From a virus, in UHGV virus genome UHGV-2053560: a DNA stretch of 15,005 bases, one strand, 5' to 3'. Positions 5,202-13,725 of the stretch are shown piece by piece (within the stretch, counting starts at the first letter, position 1; every line of letters begins with the position of its first letter). The translations under genes and the position numbers were made by a program. The notes under the pieces were generated by a model that had not been told where the DNA came from, made no database searches, and was given only the letters and a program-made list of their open reading frames with translations.

Positions 5202-5672
5202 CTAATAAAATACCCAATTTTCTGTTTCTTGGTTGTGTCCAAAGTTATATTCAATAACTGGTGTTGATGTATCAATATTTTTCATCCCATCAACAAGAGT
5301 TGATACAACAGCCAAATCTTGTTTTATTCTCATTAAATGGTATTTCTTCCGGCGCAATAAACTTTCAATAGCAAGTTTCTTCGTTGGGAATGCAAAAGAT
5401 CTTTCTGCATTTTTTGCTACTTTCTTAATTGCATATCTATTTCTCCTTTGTTTCCATTCCTGTAACCACTGATTTGGTGCTGGTTTAAAATTAACAACCC
5501 AATGCGCAGGAACCAACCATGCATAATGCTCTGTCTGATGAAAAGCTATATATTGAAGTGCGAATATTTTTATCCCATCTTCTTCAACTGTCGACTGGAA
5601 TCTCCAGAAAACAGGCATTCCATCATGTTCAGTTTCTGATTCAGGAAAAGGTACGCTCCATGATTTTGTCAT
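5202..5672 (-). CDS. Hypothetical protein (156 aa), AT-rich moron in the N-to-cIII interval
   Basis: ATG at 5672 preceded by GAGGTGAGAT; ends in TAG at 5202-5204. Visibly more AT-rich than the flanking genes. Non-repetitive soluble-looking protein; no family recognised. Confidence 0.6.
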   Translation of the reverse strand: MTKSWSVPFPESETEHDGMPVFWRFQSTVEEDGIKIFALQYIAFHQTEHYAWLVPAHWVVNFKPAPNQWLQEWKQRRNRYAIKKVAKNAERSFAFPTKKLAIESLLRRKKYHLMRIKQDLAVVSTLVDGMKNIDTSTPVIEYNFGHNQETENWVFY

Positions 5673-5872: not shown

Positions 5873-6205
5873 TCAATCGTAATAAGCTGGAATTGATTTT
5901 CCGCGTTGCTTCTGGCGGCCTGAGCATGTCACACCCATTTCACTGCGTGGCTTGCTGTACCATGTGCGCTGATTCTTGCGCTCAATACGTTGCAGGTTGC
6001 TTTCAATCTGTTCGTGGTATTCAGCCAGCACCGTAAGGTCTATCGGATTCAGTGCGCTTTCTACTCGTGATTTCGGTTTGCGATTCAGCGAGAGAATAGG
6101 GCGGTTAACTGGTTTTGCGCTTACCCCAACCAACAGGGGATTTGCTGCTTTCCATTGAGCCTGTTTCTCTGCGCGACGTTCGCGGCGGCGTGTTTGTGCA
6201 TCCAT
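5873..6205 (-). CDS. N: Antitermination protein N
   Basis: Product from ATG at 6205 begins MDAQTRRRERRAEKQAQWKAANPLLVGV, the arginine-rich motif of lambda N as I recall it. SD AGGAG upstream; nutL and pL lie immediately upstream on the same strand. Confidence 0.9.
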   Translation of the reverse strand: MDAQTRRRERRAEKQAQWKAANPLLVGVSAKPVNRPILSLNRKPKSRVESALNPIDLTVLAEYHEQIESNLQRIERKNQRTWYSKPRSEMGVTCSGRQKQRGKSIPAYYD

Positions 6206-6364
6206 CTGGATTCTCCTGTCAGTTAGCTTTGGTGGTGTGTGGCAGTTGTAGTCCTGAACGAAAACCCCCCGCGATTGGCACATTGGCAGCTAATCCGGAA
6301 TCGCACTTCCGGCCAATGCTTCGTTTCGTATCACACACCCCAAAGCCTTCTGCTTTGAATGCTG

Positions 6365-6395
6365 CCCTTCTTCAGGGCTTAATTTTTAAGAGCGT
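6365..6395 (-). promoter_or_regulatory. nutL (boxB hairpin and boxA)
   Basis: Minus-strand GCCCTGAAGAAGGGC (lambda nutL boxB) at 6365-6379 and CGCTCTTAA (boxA) at 6387-6395, between pL and N. Confidence 0.8.
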
Positions 6396-6434
6396 CACCT
6401 TCATGGTGGTCAGTGCGTCCTGCTGATGCGCTCA

Positions 6435-6497
6435 GTATCACCGCCAGTGGTATTTATGTCAACACCGCCAGAGATAATTTATCACCGCAGATGGTTA
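6435..6497 (-). promoter_or_regulatory. pL promoter with operators oL1, oL2, oL3
   Basis: TATCACCGCCAGTGGTA (6437-6453), CAACACCGCCAGAGATA (6461-6477) and TATCACCGCAGATGGTT (6481-6497) match lambda oL1-oL3 as recalled. Minus-strand TTGACA (-35) and GATACT (-10) overlap them. Confidence 0.85.
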
Positions 6498-6640
6498 TCT
6501 GTATGTTTTTTATATGAATTTATTTTTTGCAGGGGGGCATTGTTTGGTAGGTGAGAGATCTGAATTGCTATGTTTAGTGAGTTGTATCTATTTATTTTTC
6601 AATAAATACAATTGGTTATGTGTTTTGGGGGCGATCGTGA

Positions 6641-6669
6641 GGCAAAGAAAACCCGGCGCTGAGGCCGGG
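6641..6669 (-). terminator. Rho-independent terminator immediately after rexB (tIMM-like)
   Basis: Stem CCCGGC (6652-6657) / GCCGGG (6664-6669), loop GCTGAG, followed on the minus strand by TTTTCTTTG. Confidence 0.6.
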
Positions 6670-7104
6670 TTATTCTTGTTCTCTGGTCAAATTATATAGT
6701 TGGAAAACAAGGATGCATATATGAATGAACGATGCAGAGGCAATGCCGATGGCGATAGTGGGTATCATGTAGCCGCTTATGCTGGAAAGAAGCAATAACC
6801 CGCAGAAAAACAAAGCTCCAAGCTCAACAAAACTAAGGGCATAGACAATAACTACCGATGTCATATACCCATACTCTCTAATCTTGGCCAGTCGGCGCGT
6901 TCTGCTTCCGATTAGAAACGTCAAGGCAGCAATCAGGATTGCAATCATGGTTCCTGCATATGATGACAATGTCGCCCCAAGACCATCTCTATGAGCTGAA
7001 AAAGAAACACCAGGAATGTAGTGGCGGAAAAGGAGATAGCAAATGCTTACGATAACGTAAGGAATTATTACTATGTAAACACCAGGCATGATTCTGTTCC
7101 GCAT
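6670..7104 (-). CDS. rexB: RexB, membrane component of the Rex abortive-infection/exclusion system
   Basis: 144 aa, multiple hydrophobic helices, directly downstream of rexA in the cI transcript. Size, position and sequence agree with lambda RexB as I recall it. Confidence 0.9.
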   Translation of the reverse strand: MRNRIMPGVYIVIIPYVIVSICYLLFRHYIPGVSFSAHRDGLGATLSSYAGTMIAILIAALTFLIGSRTRRLAKIREYGYMTSVVIVYALSFVELGALFFCGLLLLSSISGYMIPTIAIGIASASFIHICILVFQLYNLTREQE

Positions 7105-7119
7105 AATTACTCCTGATAA

Positions 7120-7959
7120 TTAATCCTTAACTTTGCCCACCTGCCTTTTAAAACATTCCAGTATATCACTTTTCATTCTTGCGTAGCAATATGCCATCTC
7201 TTCAGCTATCTCAGCATTGGTGACCTTGTTCAGAGGCGCTGAGAGATGGCCTTTTTCTGATAGATAATGTTCTGTTAAAATATCTCCGGCCTCATCTTTT
7301 GCCCGCAGGCTAATGTCTGAAAATTGAGGTGACGGGTTAAAAATAATATCCTTGGCAACCTTTTTTATATCCCTTTTAAATTTTGGCTTAATGACTATAT
7401 CCAATGAGTCAAAAAGCTCCCCTTCAATATCTGTTGCCCCTAAGACCTTTAATATATCGCCAAATACAGGTAGCTTGGCTTCTACCTTCACCGTTGTTCG
7501 GCCGATGAAATGCATATGCATAACATCGTCTTTGGTGGTTCCCCTCATCAGTGGCTCTATCTGAACGCGCTCTCCACTGCTTAATGACATTCCTTTCCCG
7601 ATTAAAAAATCTGTCAGATCGGATGTGGTCGGCCCGAAAACAGTTCTGGCAAAACCAATGGTGTCGCCTTCAACAAACAAAAAAGATGGGAATCCCAATG
7701 ATTCGTCATCTGCGAGGCTGTTCTTAATATCTTCAACTGAAGCTTTAGAGCGATTTATCTTCTGAACCAGACTCTTGTCATTTGTTTTGGTAAAGAGAAA
7801 AGTTTTTCCATCGATTTTATGAATATACAAATAATTGGAGCCAACCTGCAGGTGATGATTATCAGCCAGCAGAGAATTAAGGAAAACAGACAGGTTTATT
7901 GAGCGCTTATCTTTCCCTTTATTTTTGCTGCGGTAAGTCGCATAAAAACCATTCTTCAT
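7120..7959 (-). CDS. rexA: RexA, sensor/activator component of the Rex exclusion system
   Basis: 279 aa, immediately downstream of cI on the same strand. Size, position and N-terminus (MKNGFYATYRSKNKGKDKRS) agree with lambda RexA as I recall it. Confidence 0.9.
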   Translation of the reverse strand: MKNGFYATYRSKNKGKDKRSINLSVFLNSLLADNHHLQVGSNYLYIHKIDGKTFLFTKTNDKSLVQKINRSKASVEDIKNSLADDESLGFPSFLFVEGDTIGFARTVFGPTTSDLTDFLIGKGMSLSSGERVQIEPLMRGTTKDDVMHMHFIGRTTVKVEAKLPVFGDILKVLGATDIEGELFDSLDIVIKPKFKRDIKKVAKDIIFNPSPQFSDISLRAKDEAGDILTEHYLSEKGHLSAPLNKVTNAEIAEEMAYCYARMKSDILECFKRQVGKVKD

Positions 7960-8071
7960 AATTCAATCCATTTACTATGTTATGTTCTGAGGGGAGTGAA
8001 AATTCCCCTAATTCGATGAAGATTCTTGCTCAATTGTTATCAGCTATGCGCCGACCAGAACACCTTGCCGA

Positions 8072-8788
<717 letters not shown>

Positions 8789-8796
8789 TTAAATCT

Positions 8797-8860
8797 ATCA
8801 CCGCAAGGGATAAATATCTAACACCGTGCGTGTTGACTATTTTACCTCTGGCGGTGATAA
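8797..8860. promoter_or_regulatory. oR3-oR2-oR1 operators with divergent pRM and pR
   Basis: TATCACCGCAAGGGATA (8797-8813), TAACACCGTGCGTGTTG (8819-8835) and TACCTCTGGCGGTGATA (8843-8859). pR -35 TTGACT (8832-8837) and -10 GATAAT (8855-8860); cro SD AAGGAGG at 8875-8881. Confidence 0.9.
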
Positions 8861-8876
8861 TGGTTGCATGTACTAA

Positions 8877-9086
<210 letters not shown>

Positions 9087-9093
9087 ATAACCC

Positions 9094-9125
9094 CGCTCTT
9101 ACACATCCCAGCCCTGAAAAAGGGC
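9094..9125 (+). promoter_or_regulatory. nutR (boxA and boxB)
   Basis: CGCTCTTA (9094-9101) and boxB hairpin GCCCTGAAAAAGGGC (9111-9125), directly after the cro stop. Confidence 0.8.
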
Positions 9126-9204
9126 ATCAAATTAAACCACACCTATGGTGTATGCATTTATTTGCATACATTCAATCAATTGTTATCTAAGGAAATACTT
9201 ACAT

Positions 9205-9483
9205 ATGCAACTTACAAGTACTCGCAAGAAAGCGAATGCAATTACAAGCAACATCCTGAATCGAATTGCTGTACGTGGTCAGCGAAAGGTTGCTGATGCA
9301 TTAGGGATTAATGAATCGCAAATTTCGCGATGGAAAGACAGCTTTATCCCAAAGATGGCCATGCTTCTGGCTGTGCTGGAGTGGGGTGTTGAAGACGAGG
9401 AATTAGCAGAGCTGGCAAAGAAAGTAGCCATGGTGCTGACAAAAGAAAAGCCTCAAGACTGCTGCAACAGTTTTGAGGCCTGA
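9205..9483 (+). CDS. cII: CII-like transcriptional activator (non-lambda allele)
   Basis: ATG at 9205 preceded by TAAGGAAATACTTACAT, as at lambda cII. Product carries the conserved core ESQISRWK...IPK..MLLAVLEWGV, but the N- and C-termini differ from lambda CII. The ORF-track extension to 9145 is rejected. Confidence 0.75.
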   Translation: MQLTSTRKKANAITSNILNRIAVRGQRKVADALGINESQISRWKDSFIPKMAMLLAVLEWGVEDEELAELAKKVAMVLTKEKPQDCCNSFEA

Positions 9484-9517
9484 TGTAGAAAGACTGGATC
9501 AATCCACAGGAGTAATT

Positions 9518-9679
9518 ATGACAAAACGTCGTAAGAAATACCAGGAAAAAGAAGAGATTCGACACCCTGATTCACATGAGGGATTAGTGGTAGCCGCAGC
9601 AAATAACAGGGCGTTCGCAGAGCGCCTTGTTGGTGTTTACAGACTAGCCAAAGCAGGAGTGAAACATGGGCGTCGTTAA
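9518..9679 (+). CDS. Small basic hypothetical protein (53 aa) between cII and the O-like gene
   Basis: ATG at 9518 preceded by CAGGAGTAATT; product [53 protein letters not shown]; overlaps the O-like start by 14 nt. Confidence 0.4.
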   Translation: MTKRRKKYQEKEEIRHPDSHEGLVVAAANNRAFAERLVGVYRLAKAGVKHGRR

Positions 9680-10487
9680 GTTAGCTGATTACAGGCCTCA
9701 ACTGGAGGTCGTGGAGCATCGCGTGGCAGACACCGAAGATGGTTTCATGCGCGTTGCTAACGAGATTACCGACAGTCTGCTGATGGCTGATTTAACCGTC
9801 CGGCAGTTGAAGGTGATGCTCGCTATCATGCGCAAGACATACGGATTCAATAAGCCGATGGATCGACTCACAAACACGCAGATAGCAGCCATGACAGGTA
9901 TTCATCACACTCATGTTTGCGCTGCCAAGCGCCAGCTTATTGAGCGTAAATTCCTCATTGCTGATGGCGTGAAAATCGGAGTGAACAAGGTGGTTTCGCA
10001 GTGGATTAGCCAGGACAGCTTAACATTAGCCAAAACAGCTAATAAAACATTAGCCAAGTCGGCTAATGGGTATAAGCCAAGTCAGCTAAACACAAAAGAC
10101 AATATACAAAAGACAATAAATACAAATACCCCCTTACCCCCTAACGGGGGCGGCGATGGGCAGGTTAAACCTGAACGTCGCAAGGCAGAACGAATCGACT
10201 ACGAATCCTTCCTGAACGCCTACAACACCGAAGTCGGTGACAGACTTCCACACGCTGTTGCGGTCAACGAGAAACGCAAACGCCGCCTGAAGAAAATCAT
10301 CCCGCAACTGAAAACGCCAAACGTGGACGGTTTCAGGGCGTATGTCAGGGCGTTTGTGCATCAGGCCAAGCCGTTTTACTTCGGAGACAACGACACGGGC
10401 TGGACGGCCGATTTTGATTACCTGCTGAGAGAAGATTCGTTAACGGGAGTTCGTGAAGGGAAGTTTGCAGACAGGGGGATTGCATGA
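9666..10487 (+). CDS. Replication initiator, lambda O-like N-terminal domain (P22 gene 18-like)
   Basis: 273 aa. [36 protein letters not shown] parallels lambda O (LTKRQFKVLLAILRKTYGWNKPMDRITDSQL). Iteron array and AT-rich tract lie inside the gene; SD AGGAGTGA before the ATG. Confidence 0.8.
10004..10150 (+). repeat. Replication-origin-like iteron array, AT-rich tract and GC palindrome inside the O-like gene
   Basis: Four ~20-bp imperfect repeats with internal dyad symmetry (GATTAGCCAGGACAGCTTAA, CATTAGCCAAAACAGCTAAT, CATTAGCCAAGTCGGCTAAT, ATAAGCCAAGTCAGCTAAAC), then an AT-rich stretch (10091-10128) and CCCCCTAACGGGGG. Confidence 0.6.
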
Positions 10488-11860
10488 GACAGGATATCGA
10501 AGCGAGCGTTATCGGCGGTCTGCTGATTGGTGGATTAACGCCAACCGCCAGCGACGTTCTGGCAACGCTTGAGCCGGAAGCGTTTTCAATTCCGCTCTAC
10601 CGGAAAGCCTTCGAGGTTATCCGCAAGCAGGCGAGAAACAGAAACCTAATCGACGCGCTGATGGTTGCCGAGGCGTGCGGAGAGGAGCATTTCACGTCAA
10701 TCCTGATGACCAGCAAAAACTGCCCGAGTGCCGCAAACCTGAAGGGATATGCCGGAATGGTCGCGGATAACTATCACCGCCGTCTGGTGCTGGAAATCAT
10801 GGATGAAATGCGTGAACCAATTCAGAGCGGAACCATCGACGCATCGAGTCAGGCGATGGATGAACTTGTAAAGCGTCTTTCAGCCATCAGAAAGCCCCGT
10901 GACGAGGTAAAACCTGTACGGTTAGGGGAAATCATTACTGACTACACTGACACGCTTGACAGGCGTCTGAGGAACGGAGAAGAGTCCGATACCCTGAAGA
11001 CCGGAATCGAAGAACTTGATGCCATCACCGGAGGGATGAACGCGGAAGACCTGGTGATAATCGCTGCTCGTCCTGGTATGGGGAAAACCGAACTGGCGCT
11101 GAAGATTGCCGAAGGCGTTGCAAGCCGCGTTATTCCTGGTTCTGACGTCCGGCGCGGAGTATTGATTTTCTCAATGGAAATGAGCGCATTGCAGATTGCA
11201 GAGCGAAGTATTGCCAACGCCGGGAGGATGTCGGTTAGCGTGCTGCGAAATCCTGCATCGATGGATGACGAGGGCTGGGCACGTGTTGCTAACGGCATGA
11301 GTCAGCTTGCAGATTTGGATGTATGGGTAGTCGATGCCTCGCGGTTATCGGTCGAAGAAATACGCTCAATCGCAGAACGGCACAAACAGGAAAATCCAAA
11401 CCTGTCACTCATCATGGCGGATTATCTTGGCCTGATTGAGAAGCCGAAAGCAGACCGCAACGACCTTGCAATTGCTCACATCTCCGGAAGCCTGAAGGCG
11501 ATGGCGAAAGACCTAAAAACGCCTGTTATCTCCCTGAGTCAGCTTTCGCGCGATGTTGAGAAGCGACCAAACAAACGCCCGACAAACGCAGATTTGCGTG
11601 ATTCAGGAAGCATTGAACAGGACGCAGACTCAATCATCATGCTCTATCGGGAAGCGGTATATGACGAGAACAGTAGCGCCGCGCCATTTGCTGAAATCAT
11701 CGTGACGAAAAACCGTTTTGGCTCGCTTGGTACGGTTTACCAGCGATTCTGTAACGGACACTTTGTTGCATGTGACCAGGATGAAGCCAGACAGATTTGC
11801 ACAGCATCAAATGCGCCTGCTGCGCGTGGCAGACGATATGCACAAGGGGCGGACGTATGA
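10484..11860 (+). CDS. DnaB-family replicative DNA helicase (P22 gene 12-like)
   Basis: 458 aa. Walker [14 protein letters not shown], DnaB-like motifs ([44 protein letters not shown]). ATG overlaps the O-like stop (ATGA). Confidence 0.9.
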
Positions 11861-11940
11861 CCATCTACATCACTGAGCTTGTAACAGGCCTGCTGGTAAT
11901 CGCAGGCCTTTTTATTTGGGGGAGAGTAAATCGTGGTTGA
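11857..11940 (+). CDS. Possible 27-aa hydrophobic peptide
   Basis: ATG overlaps the helicase stop (ATGA); product [27 protein letters not shown] is one predicted transmembrane helix. Very short, so speculative. Confidence 0.25.
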
Positions 11941-12139
11941 GTTGATTTTCTCTGCATTGAGGCTTCTCGGTGCTCTGTGGATGGTGGCGACGTTCATTGT
12001 GGTTGCTGGCTGTTTTGTCCGGTTGGTAGGCGAAGGTAAAGACCTGGTGGGTGTGCTTTTCGGTAGCATTCTCCTGTGGGTGATTATCGGTGTTGCGCCT
12101 GTCGCTGTAGCAAAAATGGCGTGGCGTTTTGTGAGTTGA
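11933..12139 (+). CDS. Small two-helix membrane protein (68 aa, GTG start)
   Basis: GTG at 11933 preceded by GGGGGAGAG; two hydrophobic segments (LIFSALRLLGALWMVATFIVVAGCFV and LVGVLFGSILLWVIIGVAPVAVA). Occupies the slot between the replication genes and ninB. Confidence 0.4.
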   Translation: MVELIFSALRLLGALWMVATFIVVAGCFVRLVGEGKDLVGVLFGSILLWVIIGVAPVAVAKMAWRFVS

Positions 12140-12146
12140 GGTGACA

Positions 12147-12593
12147 ATGAAGCAAATATACATGCTTCGCAACGAAGCAATCAGAAACAACGCCATAGAC
12201 GCAATACTCTCACTTCCGATCGACGACAAGTCACCTCACGAAGTCCACATTAAAGAACCAAAGCGGAGCAATCCTCAAAACCGCCTTATGTGGGCGTTAT
12301 TGCAGGACGTATCGCGTCAGGTGCTTTGGCATGGAGAGAGACTTGCGCCGGAGGACTGGAAAGATCTGTTCACTGCCCTGTGGCTTAAGACCAAAAAAAT
12401 GGAGCAAAGAAGTGCGCCTGGTATCGACGGTGGCGTTGTCATGCTTGGCGTGCGTACCAGCAAAATGCGAAAGGCCAACATGACTGAGCTTATCGAAATC
12501 ATGTTCTGGTTCGGCTCAGAGCGCAACGTGCGATGGAGTGATGACTCCCGGAGAGAGTATGAATGGTCACAACGAAAAGGGAAGGCTGCATGA
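12147..12593 (+). CDS. ninB: NinB (Orf-family recombination mediator)
   Basis: Product from ATG 12147 aligns by eye to lambda NinB (NPQNRLMWALLQDVSRQVLWHGERL vs DQNRKLWACLGDVSRQVEWHGRWL; C-terminal RWSD...EW). Confidence 0.85.
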   Translation: MKQIYMLRNEAIRNNAIDAILSLPIDDKSPHEVHIKEPKRSNPQNRLMWALLQDVSRQVLWHGERLAPEDWKDLFTALWLKTKKMEQRSAPGIDGGVVMLGVRTSKMRKANMTELIEIMFWFGSERNVRWSDDSRREYEWSQRKGKAA

Positions 12594-13117
12594 CTATCAA
12601 ATCAAATACGCCAGCACACGACAAGGACTGCTGGCAAACGCCGCTTTGGCTTTTTGATGCACTGGATATTGAGTTTGGATTCTGGCTGGATTCGGCAGCG
12701 AGCGACAAAAACGCTCTGTGCGCTCACTGGCTAACTGAGGCCGACGACGCACTCAATTCTGAGTGGATAAGCCACGGTGCAATCTGGAATAACCCACCGT
12801 ACAGCAATATCAGGCCGTGGGTGGAAAAAGCCGCTGAGCAGTGCATACAACAGCGACAGACGGTAGTGATGCTTGTGCCAGAGGATATGTCTGTCGGATG
12901 GTTCAGCAAGGCTCTGGAGAGTGTTGACGAAGTTCGTATTATCACTGATGGACGGATTAATTTTATCGAACCATCGACAGGGCTGGAGAAGAAGGGAAAC
13001 AGCAAAGGTTCCATGCTGCTGATTTGGCGACCGTTCATCAGTCCTCGACGGATGTTTACTACCGTATCCAAAGCGGCATTGATGGCGATCGGGCAGGGCG
13101 TCAGGAGGGCAGCATGA
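12590..13117 (+). CDS. Phage-type DNA N6-adenine methyltransferase (Dam-like, orphan)
   Basis: ATG at 12590 overlaps the ninB stop (ATGA). Catalytic NPPY motif in IWNNPPYSN. Sits where lambda has ninC/ninD. Confidence 0.75.
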
Positions 13118-13296: not shown

Positions 13297-13463
13297 TTGA
13301 CCAAAATCGAAGTTACGAACAAGAAAGCGTCGAGCGAGCTTTAACGTGCGCTAACTGCGGTCAGAAGCTGCATGTGCTGGAAGTTCACGTATGTGAGCAC
13401 TGCTGCGCAGAACTGATGAGCGATCCGAATAGCTCAATGTACGAGGAAGAAGACGATGAGTGA
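13293..13463 (+). CDS. ninF: NinF
   Basis: From GTG 13293 (GTGA overlap with the ninE stop): [48 protein letters not shown], a Cys-rich NinF-like sequence. The ORF track begins at an upstream ATG (13251). Confidence 0.7.
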
Positions 13464-13725
13464 TTTCTCTGAGCTTATTTCCTTCAAAAAAGACAGAGAA
13501 GAAATGCGGACTGAATCTGTCTATTACGTTCAACACCGGAATAAACGCTCTGTGCTTGATCAGGAGCTGGTTATTACCGGAGACCTGGCATTCAGAACAT
13601 ATAAGGCCAGCATGGAAATGAAGGATTTCCCTAAATGTGGTTCTGAAAGAGAAGCCGCGTTAAAGCTGGCAGAGTGGATGCAGAGAATGGCTGCTGCAAT
13701 TGAGAATTACTGGAGCGAACCATAA
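13456..13725 (+). CDS. Hypothetical protein (89 aa) between ninF and ninG
   Basis: ATG overlaps the ninF stop; its stop overlaps the ninG ATG (TAATG). Not present at this position in lambda as I recall it. Confidence 0.5.

Follow-up and report, generated by a model that had tools for sequence, protein, structure and literature searches.

What fills the space between the replication genes and ninB in a lambdoid prophage that encodes RexAB and lacks ren? The question is posed by UHGV virus genome UHGV-2053560, a 15,005-nt stretch of DNA that is called the window here. Its 283-bp interval 11857-12139, beginning at the end of a helicase gene, holds two small hydrophobic open reading frames (ORFs) of 27 and 68 codons, designated ORF27 and ORF68. 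A previous reading made without database searches (the sequence-only reading) had placed both ORFs where lambda carries ren, which it described as the gene that lets lambda escape its own Rex exclusion. It had suggested either a relationship to Rex or a role as toxin, holin-like effector or exclusion factor.

The interval probably consists of ordinary lambdoid nin-region parts, namely the ninA/tR2 module and the accessory gene ORF68, standing behind a P22-type replication module. This explanation draws on sequence identity, conservation, coding selection, gene architecture and distribution among related phages. Its elements (tR2, ninA, a PHROG family and a hypothetical protein called by the Prokaryotic Genome Annotation Pipeline, PGAP) are already known or annotated, and the finding is largely an ordinary one. 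Its value is mainly corrective: the hydrophobic mini-ORF is a textbook terminator read in one frame, and the missing ren reflects an exchange of replication modules.

The tR2 terminator and the ninA frame

An intrinsic terminator lies at 11886-11919 on the plus strand, where a terminator scan finds a stem-loop (11886-11909) and a T-tract (11910-11919), that is TTTTTATTTG. The hairpin has an 8-bp stem with six G-C pairs and an 8-nt loop, is followed by TTTTTATTTGG, and has a free energy of -15.7 kcal/mol. All 34 nt recur unchanged between ren and ninB in lambda, and the identity extends over 11886-11926 to take in the hairpin, the T-tract and then GGGGGAGAG. The lambda gene order is pR-cro-O-P-ren-tR2 (PMC3640518), and the identical sequence is called 'tR2 terminator' in a transcription construct (bioRxiv 10.1101/042432) and serves as terminator in several in vitro transcription templates in the literature. 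The HK620 record annotates 'terminator tR2' within ninA, and the P22 record a 'terminator ... similar to phage lambda'. The folding z-score of the 96-nt region is not significant at -0.18, a measure that detects short terminators poorly, and the tR2 call therefore rests on the identity to lambda. By that identity 11886-11919 is a lambda-type tR2, which would be expected to terminate E. coli RNA polymerase and to be overridden by N. A Shine-Dalgarno-like GGGAGAG (11920-11926, plus strand) follows and would serve the gene after tR2, which is ORF68 here and ninB in lambda and P22; GGGGGAGAG stands after the T-tract in nearly all of 115 loci, irrespective of the next gene.

ORF27 is ninA, lying over this terminator. 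It runs from the ATG at 11857 to the TGA at 11938-11940 (plus strand, 27 codons) and matches PHROG 5907 over residues 1-26 (E 1.1e-18); Pfam, NCBIfam and PADLOC give no match. Its ATG overlaps the TGA stop of the helicase gene (11858-11860) as ATGA, the arrangement already recognized in the sequence-only reading, which overlooked the intrinsic terminator inside the ORF and the presence of the same ORF and terminator in lambda after ren. The P22 record annotates ninA at 34673-34753 with the terminator inside, and the HK620 record a 27-codon ninA. In lambda the same ORF (26 amino acids, aa) runs from the ATGA at the ren stop to the ATGA at the ninB start and is unannotated in NC_001416. The P22 and HK620 NinA proteins resemble ORF27 in having 26-27 codons, an ATGA on the upstream stop and tR2 inside, and their first 22 residues are nearly identical to those of the window. 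Only the last five codons part company (RVNRG in the window, RGKT in P22, RGKS in lambda), because the window ORF is joined to ORF68, with its TGA inside ORF68 codons 2-3 (GTGGTTGA), and not to ninB (ATGA).

The hydrophobicity of NinA has a simple origin. Within a 19-residue hydrophobic core (mean Kyte-Doolittle value 2.0), 11 residues are what the tR2 hairpin and T-tract spell in that frame; the same nucleotides give a stop codon in one of the two remaining frames and a hydrophilic sequence in the other. An exact copy of the 22-nt tR2 hairpin also occurs inside the start of a chromosomal ORF in Klebsiella michiganensis and K. grimontii, where it encodes a signal-peptide-like MNKFFKLTALAGLLVIAGQSFA and is not followed by a T-tract. 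That match is probably a coincidence, and it illustrates that the hairpin sequence naturally reads as a hydrophobic helix.

Viral contigs were scanned with the exact 22-nt hairpin 22-mer, which yielded 120 loci and leaves hairpin variants outside the sample. Upstream of the hairpin, the 30 nt back to the ninA ATG are almost invariant. The ATG is overlapped or abutted by an upstream stop codon for at least nine different gene ends (about 112 loci), among them those of ren, the P22-type helicase, another DnaB-like helicase and an 89-aa ORF of Shiga toxin (Stx) phages. At the other end, about 112 loci, some three excepted, have the ninA stop overlapping or abutting the start of the gene that follows, which is one of at least eight unrelated genes. 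The junction takes the form NTGA before ninB and before ORFs of 100, 71, 65 and 60 aa, GTGGnTGA before ORF68 and ORF108, and TAA-ATG before ORF90. Nin regions are known for such a 'chain of interlinked genes' (Kroger and Hobom 1982, as cited in PMC8022706), and their 'interlinked ATGA' organisation has been described (PMC8022706). Stop/start linkage at both ends of ninA fits this interlinked pattern and supports translation of ninA as a bridge across the terminator. Among the roles of the module, termination is the established one, translational bridging by ninA a likely one, and a function of the ninA peptide itself an unproven one. The strictness of the linkage, whatever the neighbours, raises the question of whether translating across an intrinsic terminator affects nin expression.

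A variant of the module occurs in six loci without the usual ATGACCATCTAC... 5' part; it reads ...GGACTCGAAAGCGTGTTAAAAACAGATAAA and then the hairpin, and an in-frame GTG remains 18 nt before the hairpin. A parallel scan of genome contigs with the hairpin recovered mostly lambda-identical sequence and added little diversity. The lambda ren-tR2-ninB segment, 100% identical to lambda over the 92 nt checked, appears in 14 entries labelled Pseudomonas, Oceanobacillus, Bradyrhizobium, Psychrobacter, Pseudoxanthomonas, Shewanella, Nocardioides, Chromatium and others, several of them on low-coverage contigs of about 48.4-48.5 kb. These matches in unrelated taxa look like contamination of public assemblies with lambda control DNA.

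ORF68 and the slot after tR2

ORF68 (11933-12139, plus strand) is read from a GTG start with GGAG at 11921-11924, 8 nt upstream, as the sequence-only reading had it. The protein matches PHROG 1165 over residues 1-68 of 68 (E 6.8e-35), and so both ORFs, assigned to established phage families, go beyond chance reading frames. PGAP calls it hypothetical protein WP_023351780.1. A large protein database has 200 homologs from Escherichia, Salmonella, E. albertii and E. marmotae, each about 68 aa long and named only 'hypothetical'. A HMMER search of 1.84 billion representative proteins returned only 12 clusters, all close relatives or fragments; the family is therefore narrow, with no remote homologs to lend it a function. 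There was no match in Pfam (E <= 1), NCBIfam or PADLOC, and a full-text literature search for the peptide sequence or the accession found no papers. Homologs are present in HK022, HK75, HK629/630, mEp235, many Stx2 phages, H-19B, HK620 and P22-like Salmonella phages, and 528 of 5426 complete E. coli genomes contain the DNA of the window form.

Three subtypes can be distinguished: A (the window form), B (52-55% identical) and C (43% identical), all of exactly 68 codons. Subtype C has ATG at the position of the GTG in A and B, which fixes the start, and in all homologous loci the distance to it from the first base of the searched hairpin 22-mer is 46-47 nt. The ratio of nonsynonymous to synonymous substitution rates (dN/dS) comes to 0.48 for comparisons inside type A, 0.41 inside type B and 0.34 from A to B, dS being about 1.1 between types. 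All 25 unique intact sequences keep the sense frame open, and the antisense frames are only erratically open. The C-terminal half (W49-VIIGV-P56, A60-KMAW) hardly changes, the first helix is variable, and the C-terminus is short and basic. AlphaFold2 models a helical hairpin with helices at residues 2-33 and 38-67 (mean predicted local distance difference test score 79), in agreement with the two-helix protein seen in the sequence-only reading; given its hydrophobicity, the hairpin would be expected to sit in the membrane. A Foldseek search of this model against viral structures gave generic hairpins only, none significant (best E 0.57). On this sequence evidence ORF68 is a genuine, conserved gene for a predicted membrane protein.

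That the reading frame is instead a compositional accident is hardly credible. Such a view could point to the GTG start, to the missing annotation in HK022, HK620 and H-19B, to the 52-aa version annotated in HK630 and to two damaged copies. Against it stand the exact length of 68 codons kept in 25 unique intact sequences despite the dS between subtypes, the dN/dS below 0.5, the closed or erratically open alternative frames, the ATG at the same position in a divergent homolog and the conserved Shine-Dalgarno sequence.

The gene is a widespread one that is missing from several reference annotations. It is unannotated in HK620 (AF335538, 12384-12591), HK022 (NC_002166, 33095-33301) and H-19B (AF034975, about 8090-8294), and in HK630 (NC_019723) only a 52-aa version with an internal start is annotated, at 39516-39674. 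In two viral contigs the family copies are truncated or frameshifted to 14 and 34 codons, a pattern that fits decay of a dispensable gene in some prophages.

The position after tR2 varies among related phages. Most loci have ninB there directly, as do lambda and P22, neither of which has an ORF68 gene; others have ORF68 or an unrelated ORF of 108, 100, 90, 71, 65 or 60 aa. Across the viral loci (L005 to L124; equivalent to window 11927-12146) this slot is a hot spot for alternative first nin genes, all linked to the ninA stop. The 108-aa ORF combines an N-terminal hydrophobic helix with a soluble domain, the 90-aa ORF also has an N-terminal hydrophobic helix, and the 100-aa entry is listed as 100/92 aa. 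In the ren position upstream of tR2, three loci carry the 89-aa ORF (MNKKQLAILEKAWDAQ...), one of them Stx phage TL-2011a (contig coordinates 1658-1927). Three others carry a Ren relative, 41% identical, of which a further copy lies further upstream in one of the loci with the 89-aa ORF. The upstream slot is therefore variable too.

Ren, RexAB and the replication module

The window is a lambdoid prophage. Its genes run from integrase through Ea22-like, Abc2 (anti-RecBCD), SSB, a Rad52-like recombinase, cIII and N to rexB, rexA, cI, cro, cII, an O-like replication protein and a DnaB-like helicase, and after the ORF27/ORF68 region to ninB, Dam methylase, ninE, ninF, ninG and ninH. Window 5889-9207, spanning N, rexB, rexA, cI and cro, is 99.1% identical to lambda 35047-38362, and this lambda immunity region places rexB at 6670-7104 and rexA at 7120-7959, both on the minus strand. 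The presence of rexAB claimed in the sequence-only reading is thereby borne out, as is the absence of a ren-like gene between the helicase and ninB: a tblastn search of the window with lambda Ren found nothing (best E 0.92).

The helicase (10484-11860, plus strand) is of the P22 gene-12 type, with Pfam matches to DnaB_C (E 9.5e-78) and to the DnaB N-terminal domain (E 4.5e-13), and PGAP labels its homolog 'replicative DNA helicase'. The replication genes of the window share about 80% DNA identity with the P22 gene 18/12 region. Among the viral loci, all 31 that have a lambda-type P also have Ren, and none of the 64 with another replication module does (28 P22-type, 19 of another DnaB-like type and 17 other). 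The window lacks ren because the lambda O-P module, to which ren belongs, has been exchanged for P22-type 18/12.

ORF68 follows neither ren nor rexAB. Across 111 evaluable loci, Ren and the ORF68 family occur together in 7, Ren without ORF68 in 36, ORF68 without Ren in 21 and neither in 47, an association that is not significant either way (Fisher p = 0.12). Where the flanks are long enough to judge, rexAB is absent from 13 of 15 ORF68 loci. The combination of rexAB with a window-type helicase is found in 8 of 5426 complete E. coli genomes. In just one of these eight (all with rexB-rexA-cI) does similarity to the window run on through ORF68; in six it breaks off exactly where the tR2 module ends, and in the remaining one where the hairpin begins, so that at least six lack window-type ORF68. 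In strain 1223, examined in detail, tR2 is followed immediately by ninB, and both ren and ORF68 are missing. These genomes and the ORF68 loci that lack rexAB indicate that ORF68 is neither needed by nor associated with rexAB-positive, ren-negative prophages.

These counts bear on the proposal that both small hydrophobic ORFs occupy the place of ren and compensate for it or interact with RexAB, which we regard as very improbable. It has in its favour that the window has rexAB and no ren, that RexB is a membrane protein, as ORF68 is predicted to be, and that a second viral contig also combines rexAB, a P22-type helicase and ORF68. That contig, however, is essentially the same prophage, with proteins 100% identical. 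Lambda has ORF27 and tR2 besides ren, ORF68 lies after tR2 and outside the slot of ren, with which it coexists in the seven loci above, and Ren tracks the lambda-P module perfectly. Most ORF68 loci do without rexAB, six or seven of the eight E. coli genomes with rexAB and the helicase do without window-type ORF68, and strain 1223 dispenses with both ren and ORF68. What survives of the sequence-only reading is thus its gene-level description, a real two-helix ORF68 and an ORF27 coupled by ATGA; its positional and functional logic of ren and Rex is not supported.

Downstream, ninB (an orf-family recombination mediator; 12147-12593, plus strand; Pfam NinB, E 2e-48) starts 8 nt past the ORF68 stop, with its ribosome-binding site GAGGTGA overlapping that stop; the start coordinate is taken from the PGAP call in the strain 2013C-4991 prophage, which is 99.9% identical. 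Two further ORFs have no Pfam match at E <= 0.001. One of 156 aa (5202-5672, minus strand) lies between cIII and N and is 'hypothetical' to PGAP in a related prophage, and one of 89 aa (13456-13725, plus strand) lies between ninF and ninG.

Expression, alternatives and known systems

A sigma-70 consensus scan found no promoter-like site on the plus strand over 11000-12914 or on the minus strand over 11000-13000, and a search of the whole window against Rfam found no family at the gathering score. Expression of the nin region is delayed-early and relies on N antitermination, and the region can be dispensed with (PMC10695390). With no promoter-like site, tR2 directly upstream and an N-dependent nin region, ORF68 is expected to be expressed in lytic growth after N-dependent read-through, and to be silent in the lysogen.

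The scheme we favour joins these elements. Early rightward pR transcripts unmodified by the N antiterminator would be stopped at tR2, and the nin genes and Q would therefore be delayed-early. ninA would act mainly as a translational bridge over the terminator: ribosomes ending the helicase gene would restart at the ATGA, cross the terminator sequence and stop atop the ORF68 start. ORF68 would be an accessory gene for a 68-aa helical-hairpin protein of the inner membrane, placed in the variable slot between tR2 and ninB and made only in lytic growth, once N has allowed read-through. Our best guess at its role, a low-confidence one, is that the protein acts on the membrane in the lytic phase and is dispensable.

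Several points weigh against this reading. That ninA and ORF68 are translated, that this tR2 copy terminates transcription and that membrane insertion takes place we infer from the sequence, and the role of ORF68 is a guess. Recombination at shared boundary sequences, not selection for coupling, could account for part of the stop/start conservation, and the IMG/VR loci in the hairpin sample are redundant, so that locus counts are counts of non-independent events. A weak or non-canonical ORF68 promoter may escape a scan that matches only the sigma-70 consensus. The variant types in ninA codons 2-10 number only 12, of which 7 are synonymous (26% expected; binomial p = 0.017) and the others conservative; this signal is weak, and an out-of-frame control has 6 of 12 synonymous. 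Selection on the ninA peptide is suggested at most, and we do not claim it.

That NinA itself works as a single-helix membrane peptide, with a toxin-like or a regulatory function, is unlikely. The idea can call on the hydrophobic 19-residue core, on the bias of codon 2-10 variants just given, on ORF boundaries conserved in nearly all loci and on a PHROG family of its own. The nucleotides that dictate residues 11-21, however, are the hairpin and T-tract, which are themselves under independent selection, and the out-of-frame control has a similar synonymous fraction. Four viral loci have the 5' third of the ORF replaced and the hairpin kept, Pfam, NCBIfam and PADLOC gave no match to the peptide, and lambda nin5, in which the nin region including ninA is deleted, is viable (PMC3349717). 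A more elaborate version of the scheme, to which we allow a small chance, makes the ninA frame a regulatory device and, separately, has ORF68 act at the membrane in the lytic phase on a specific target, of host or phage. Ribosomes coupled from the replication gene would then translate over the tR2 hairpin and set the efficiency of termination, since a ribosome close behind RNA polymerase could prevent the hairpin from forming, and they would also be handed on to the first nin gene.

It is distinctly unlikely that ORF68 is a type I toxin, that it is a holin or resembles an antiholin, or that it is a superinfection-exclusion 'moron' expressed from the prophage, and the suggestion to this effect in the sequence-only reading found no support. 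The protein does have the build for such a role, being small, hydrophobic and two-helixed with a short basic C-terminus, and it stands in a variable accessory slot whose other occupants ORF108 and ORF90 also begin with a hydrophobic helix. A type I toxin locus is disfavoured by the lack of a separate promoter in the consensus scan, on either strand near ORF68, and by the empty Rfam search, in which no antisense RNA was detected. As for a holin or antiholin, ORF68 lies between the helicase and ninB, outside the lysis cassette, and has no Pfam holin match; in a near-identical prophage the holin and endolysin are about 4.5 kb downstream, past the late-gene antiterminator. Expression from a prophage, as a moron would need, is at odds with the position behind tR2 in the pR operon, where ORF68 appears translationally chained directly after a strong terminator, and PADLOC and NCBIfam add no match; the expected lytic-only expression likewise argues against a Rex-like exclusion role in the lysogen. 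The Foldseek hits were generic hairpins.

The favoured scheme, ninA and tR2 followed by an accessory ORF68, can be set beside known systems. Small phage membrane proteins with roles of their own include class II holins or pinholins (S21-68), type I toxins (TisB) and exclusion proteins (T4 Imm, P22 SieA). These resemble ORF68 in size and in having one or two hydrophobic helices; ORF68 differs in lying outside the lysis cassette and outside any region likely to be expressed in the lysogen, and in having neither a promoter-like site nor a detected antisense RNA of its own. Lambda Ren, of 96 aa, is soluble, and its gene lies upstream of tR2 and goes with lambda P, whereas ORF68 is hydrophobic, lies downstream of tR2, is independent of the type of replication module and shows no similarity to Ren; the two share only a neighbourhood, between the replication genes and ninB. 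Lambda tR2 is identical in sequence to the window element and has the same place at the boundary of replication genes and ninB, but it is preceded by ren and followed by ninB, where the window has a P22-type helicase before it and ORF68 after it.

Window 5889-11860 as a whole is a natural mosaic of lambda immunity (N, rexAB, cI, cro) and P22-type replication (18/12), architecturally the same as the laboratory hybrid lambda hy106. Lambda cI857(18,12)P22, a laboratory hybrid, forms lysogens and is inducible (PMC3349717); with its lambda identity from N to cro and its 18/12-type replication genes, the window prophage is a natural counterpart of that hybrid. The closest relatives of ORF68 itself are the PHROG 1165 proteins, among them Kapi1_027, WP_023351780.1 and the proteins of HK022, HK75, mEp235 and Stx2 phages. 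They are 84-99% identical to it and occupy the same position after tR2; we see no notable difference between them and the window protein, which is a member of their family.

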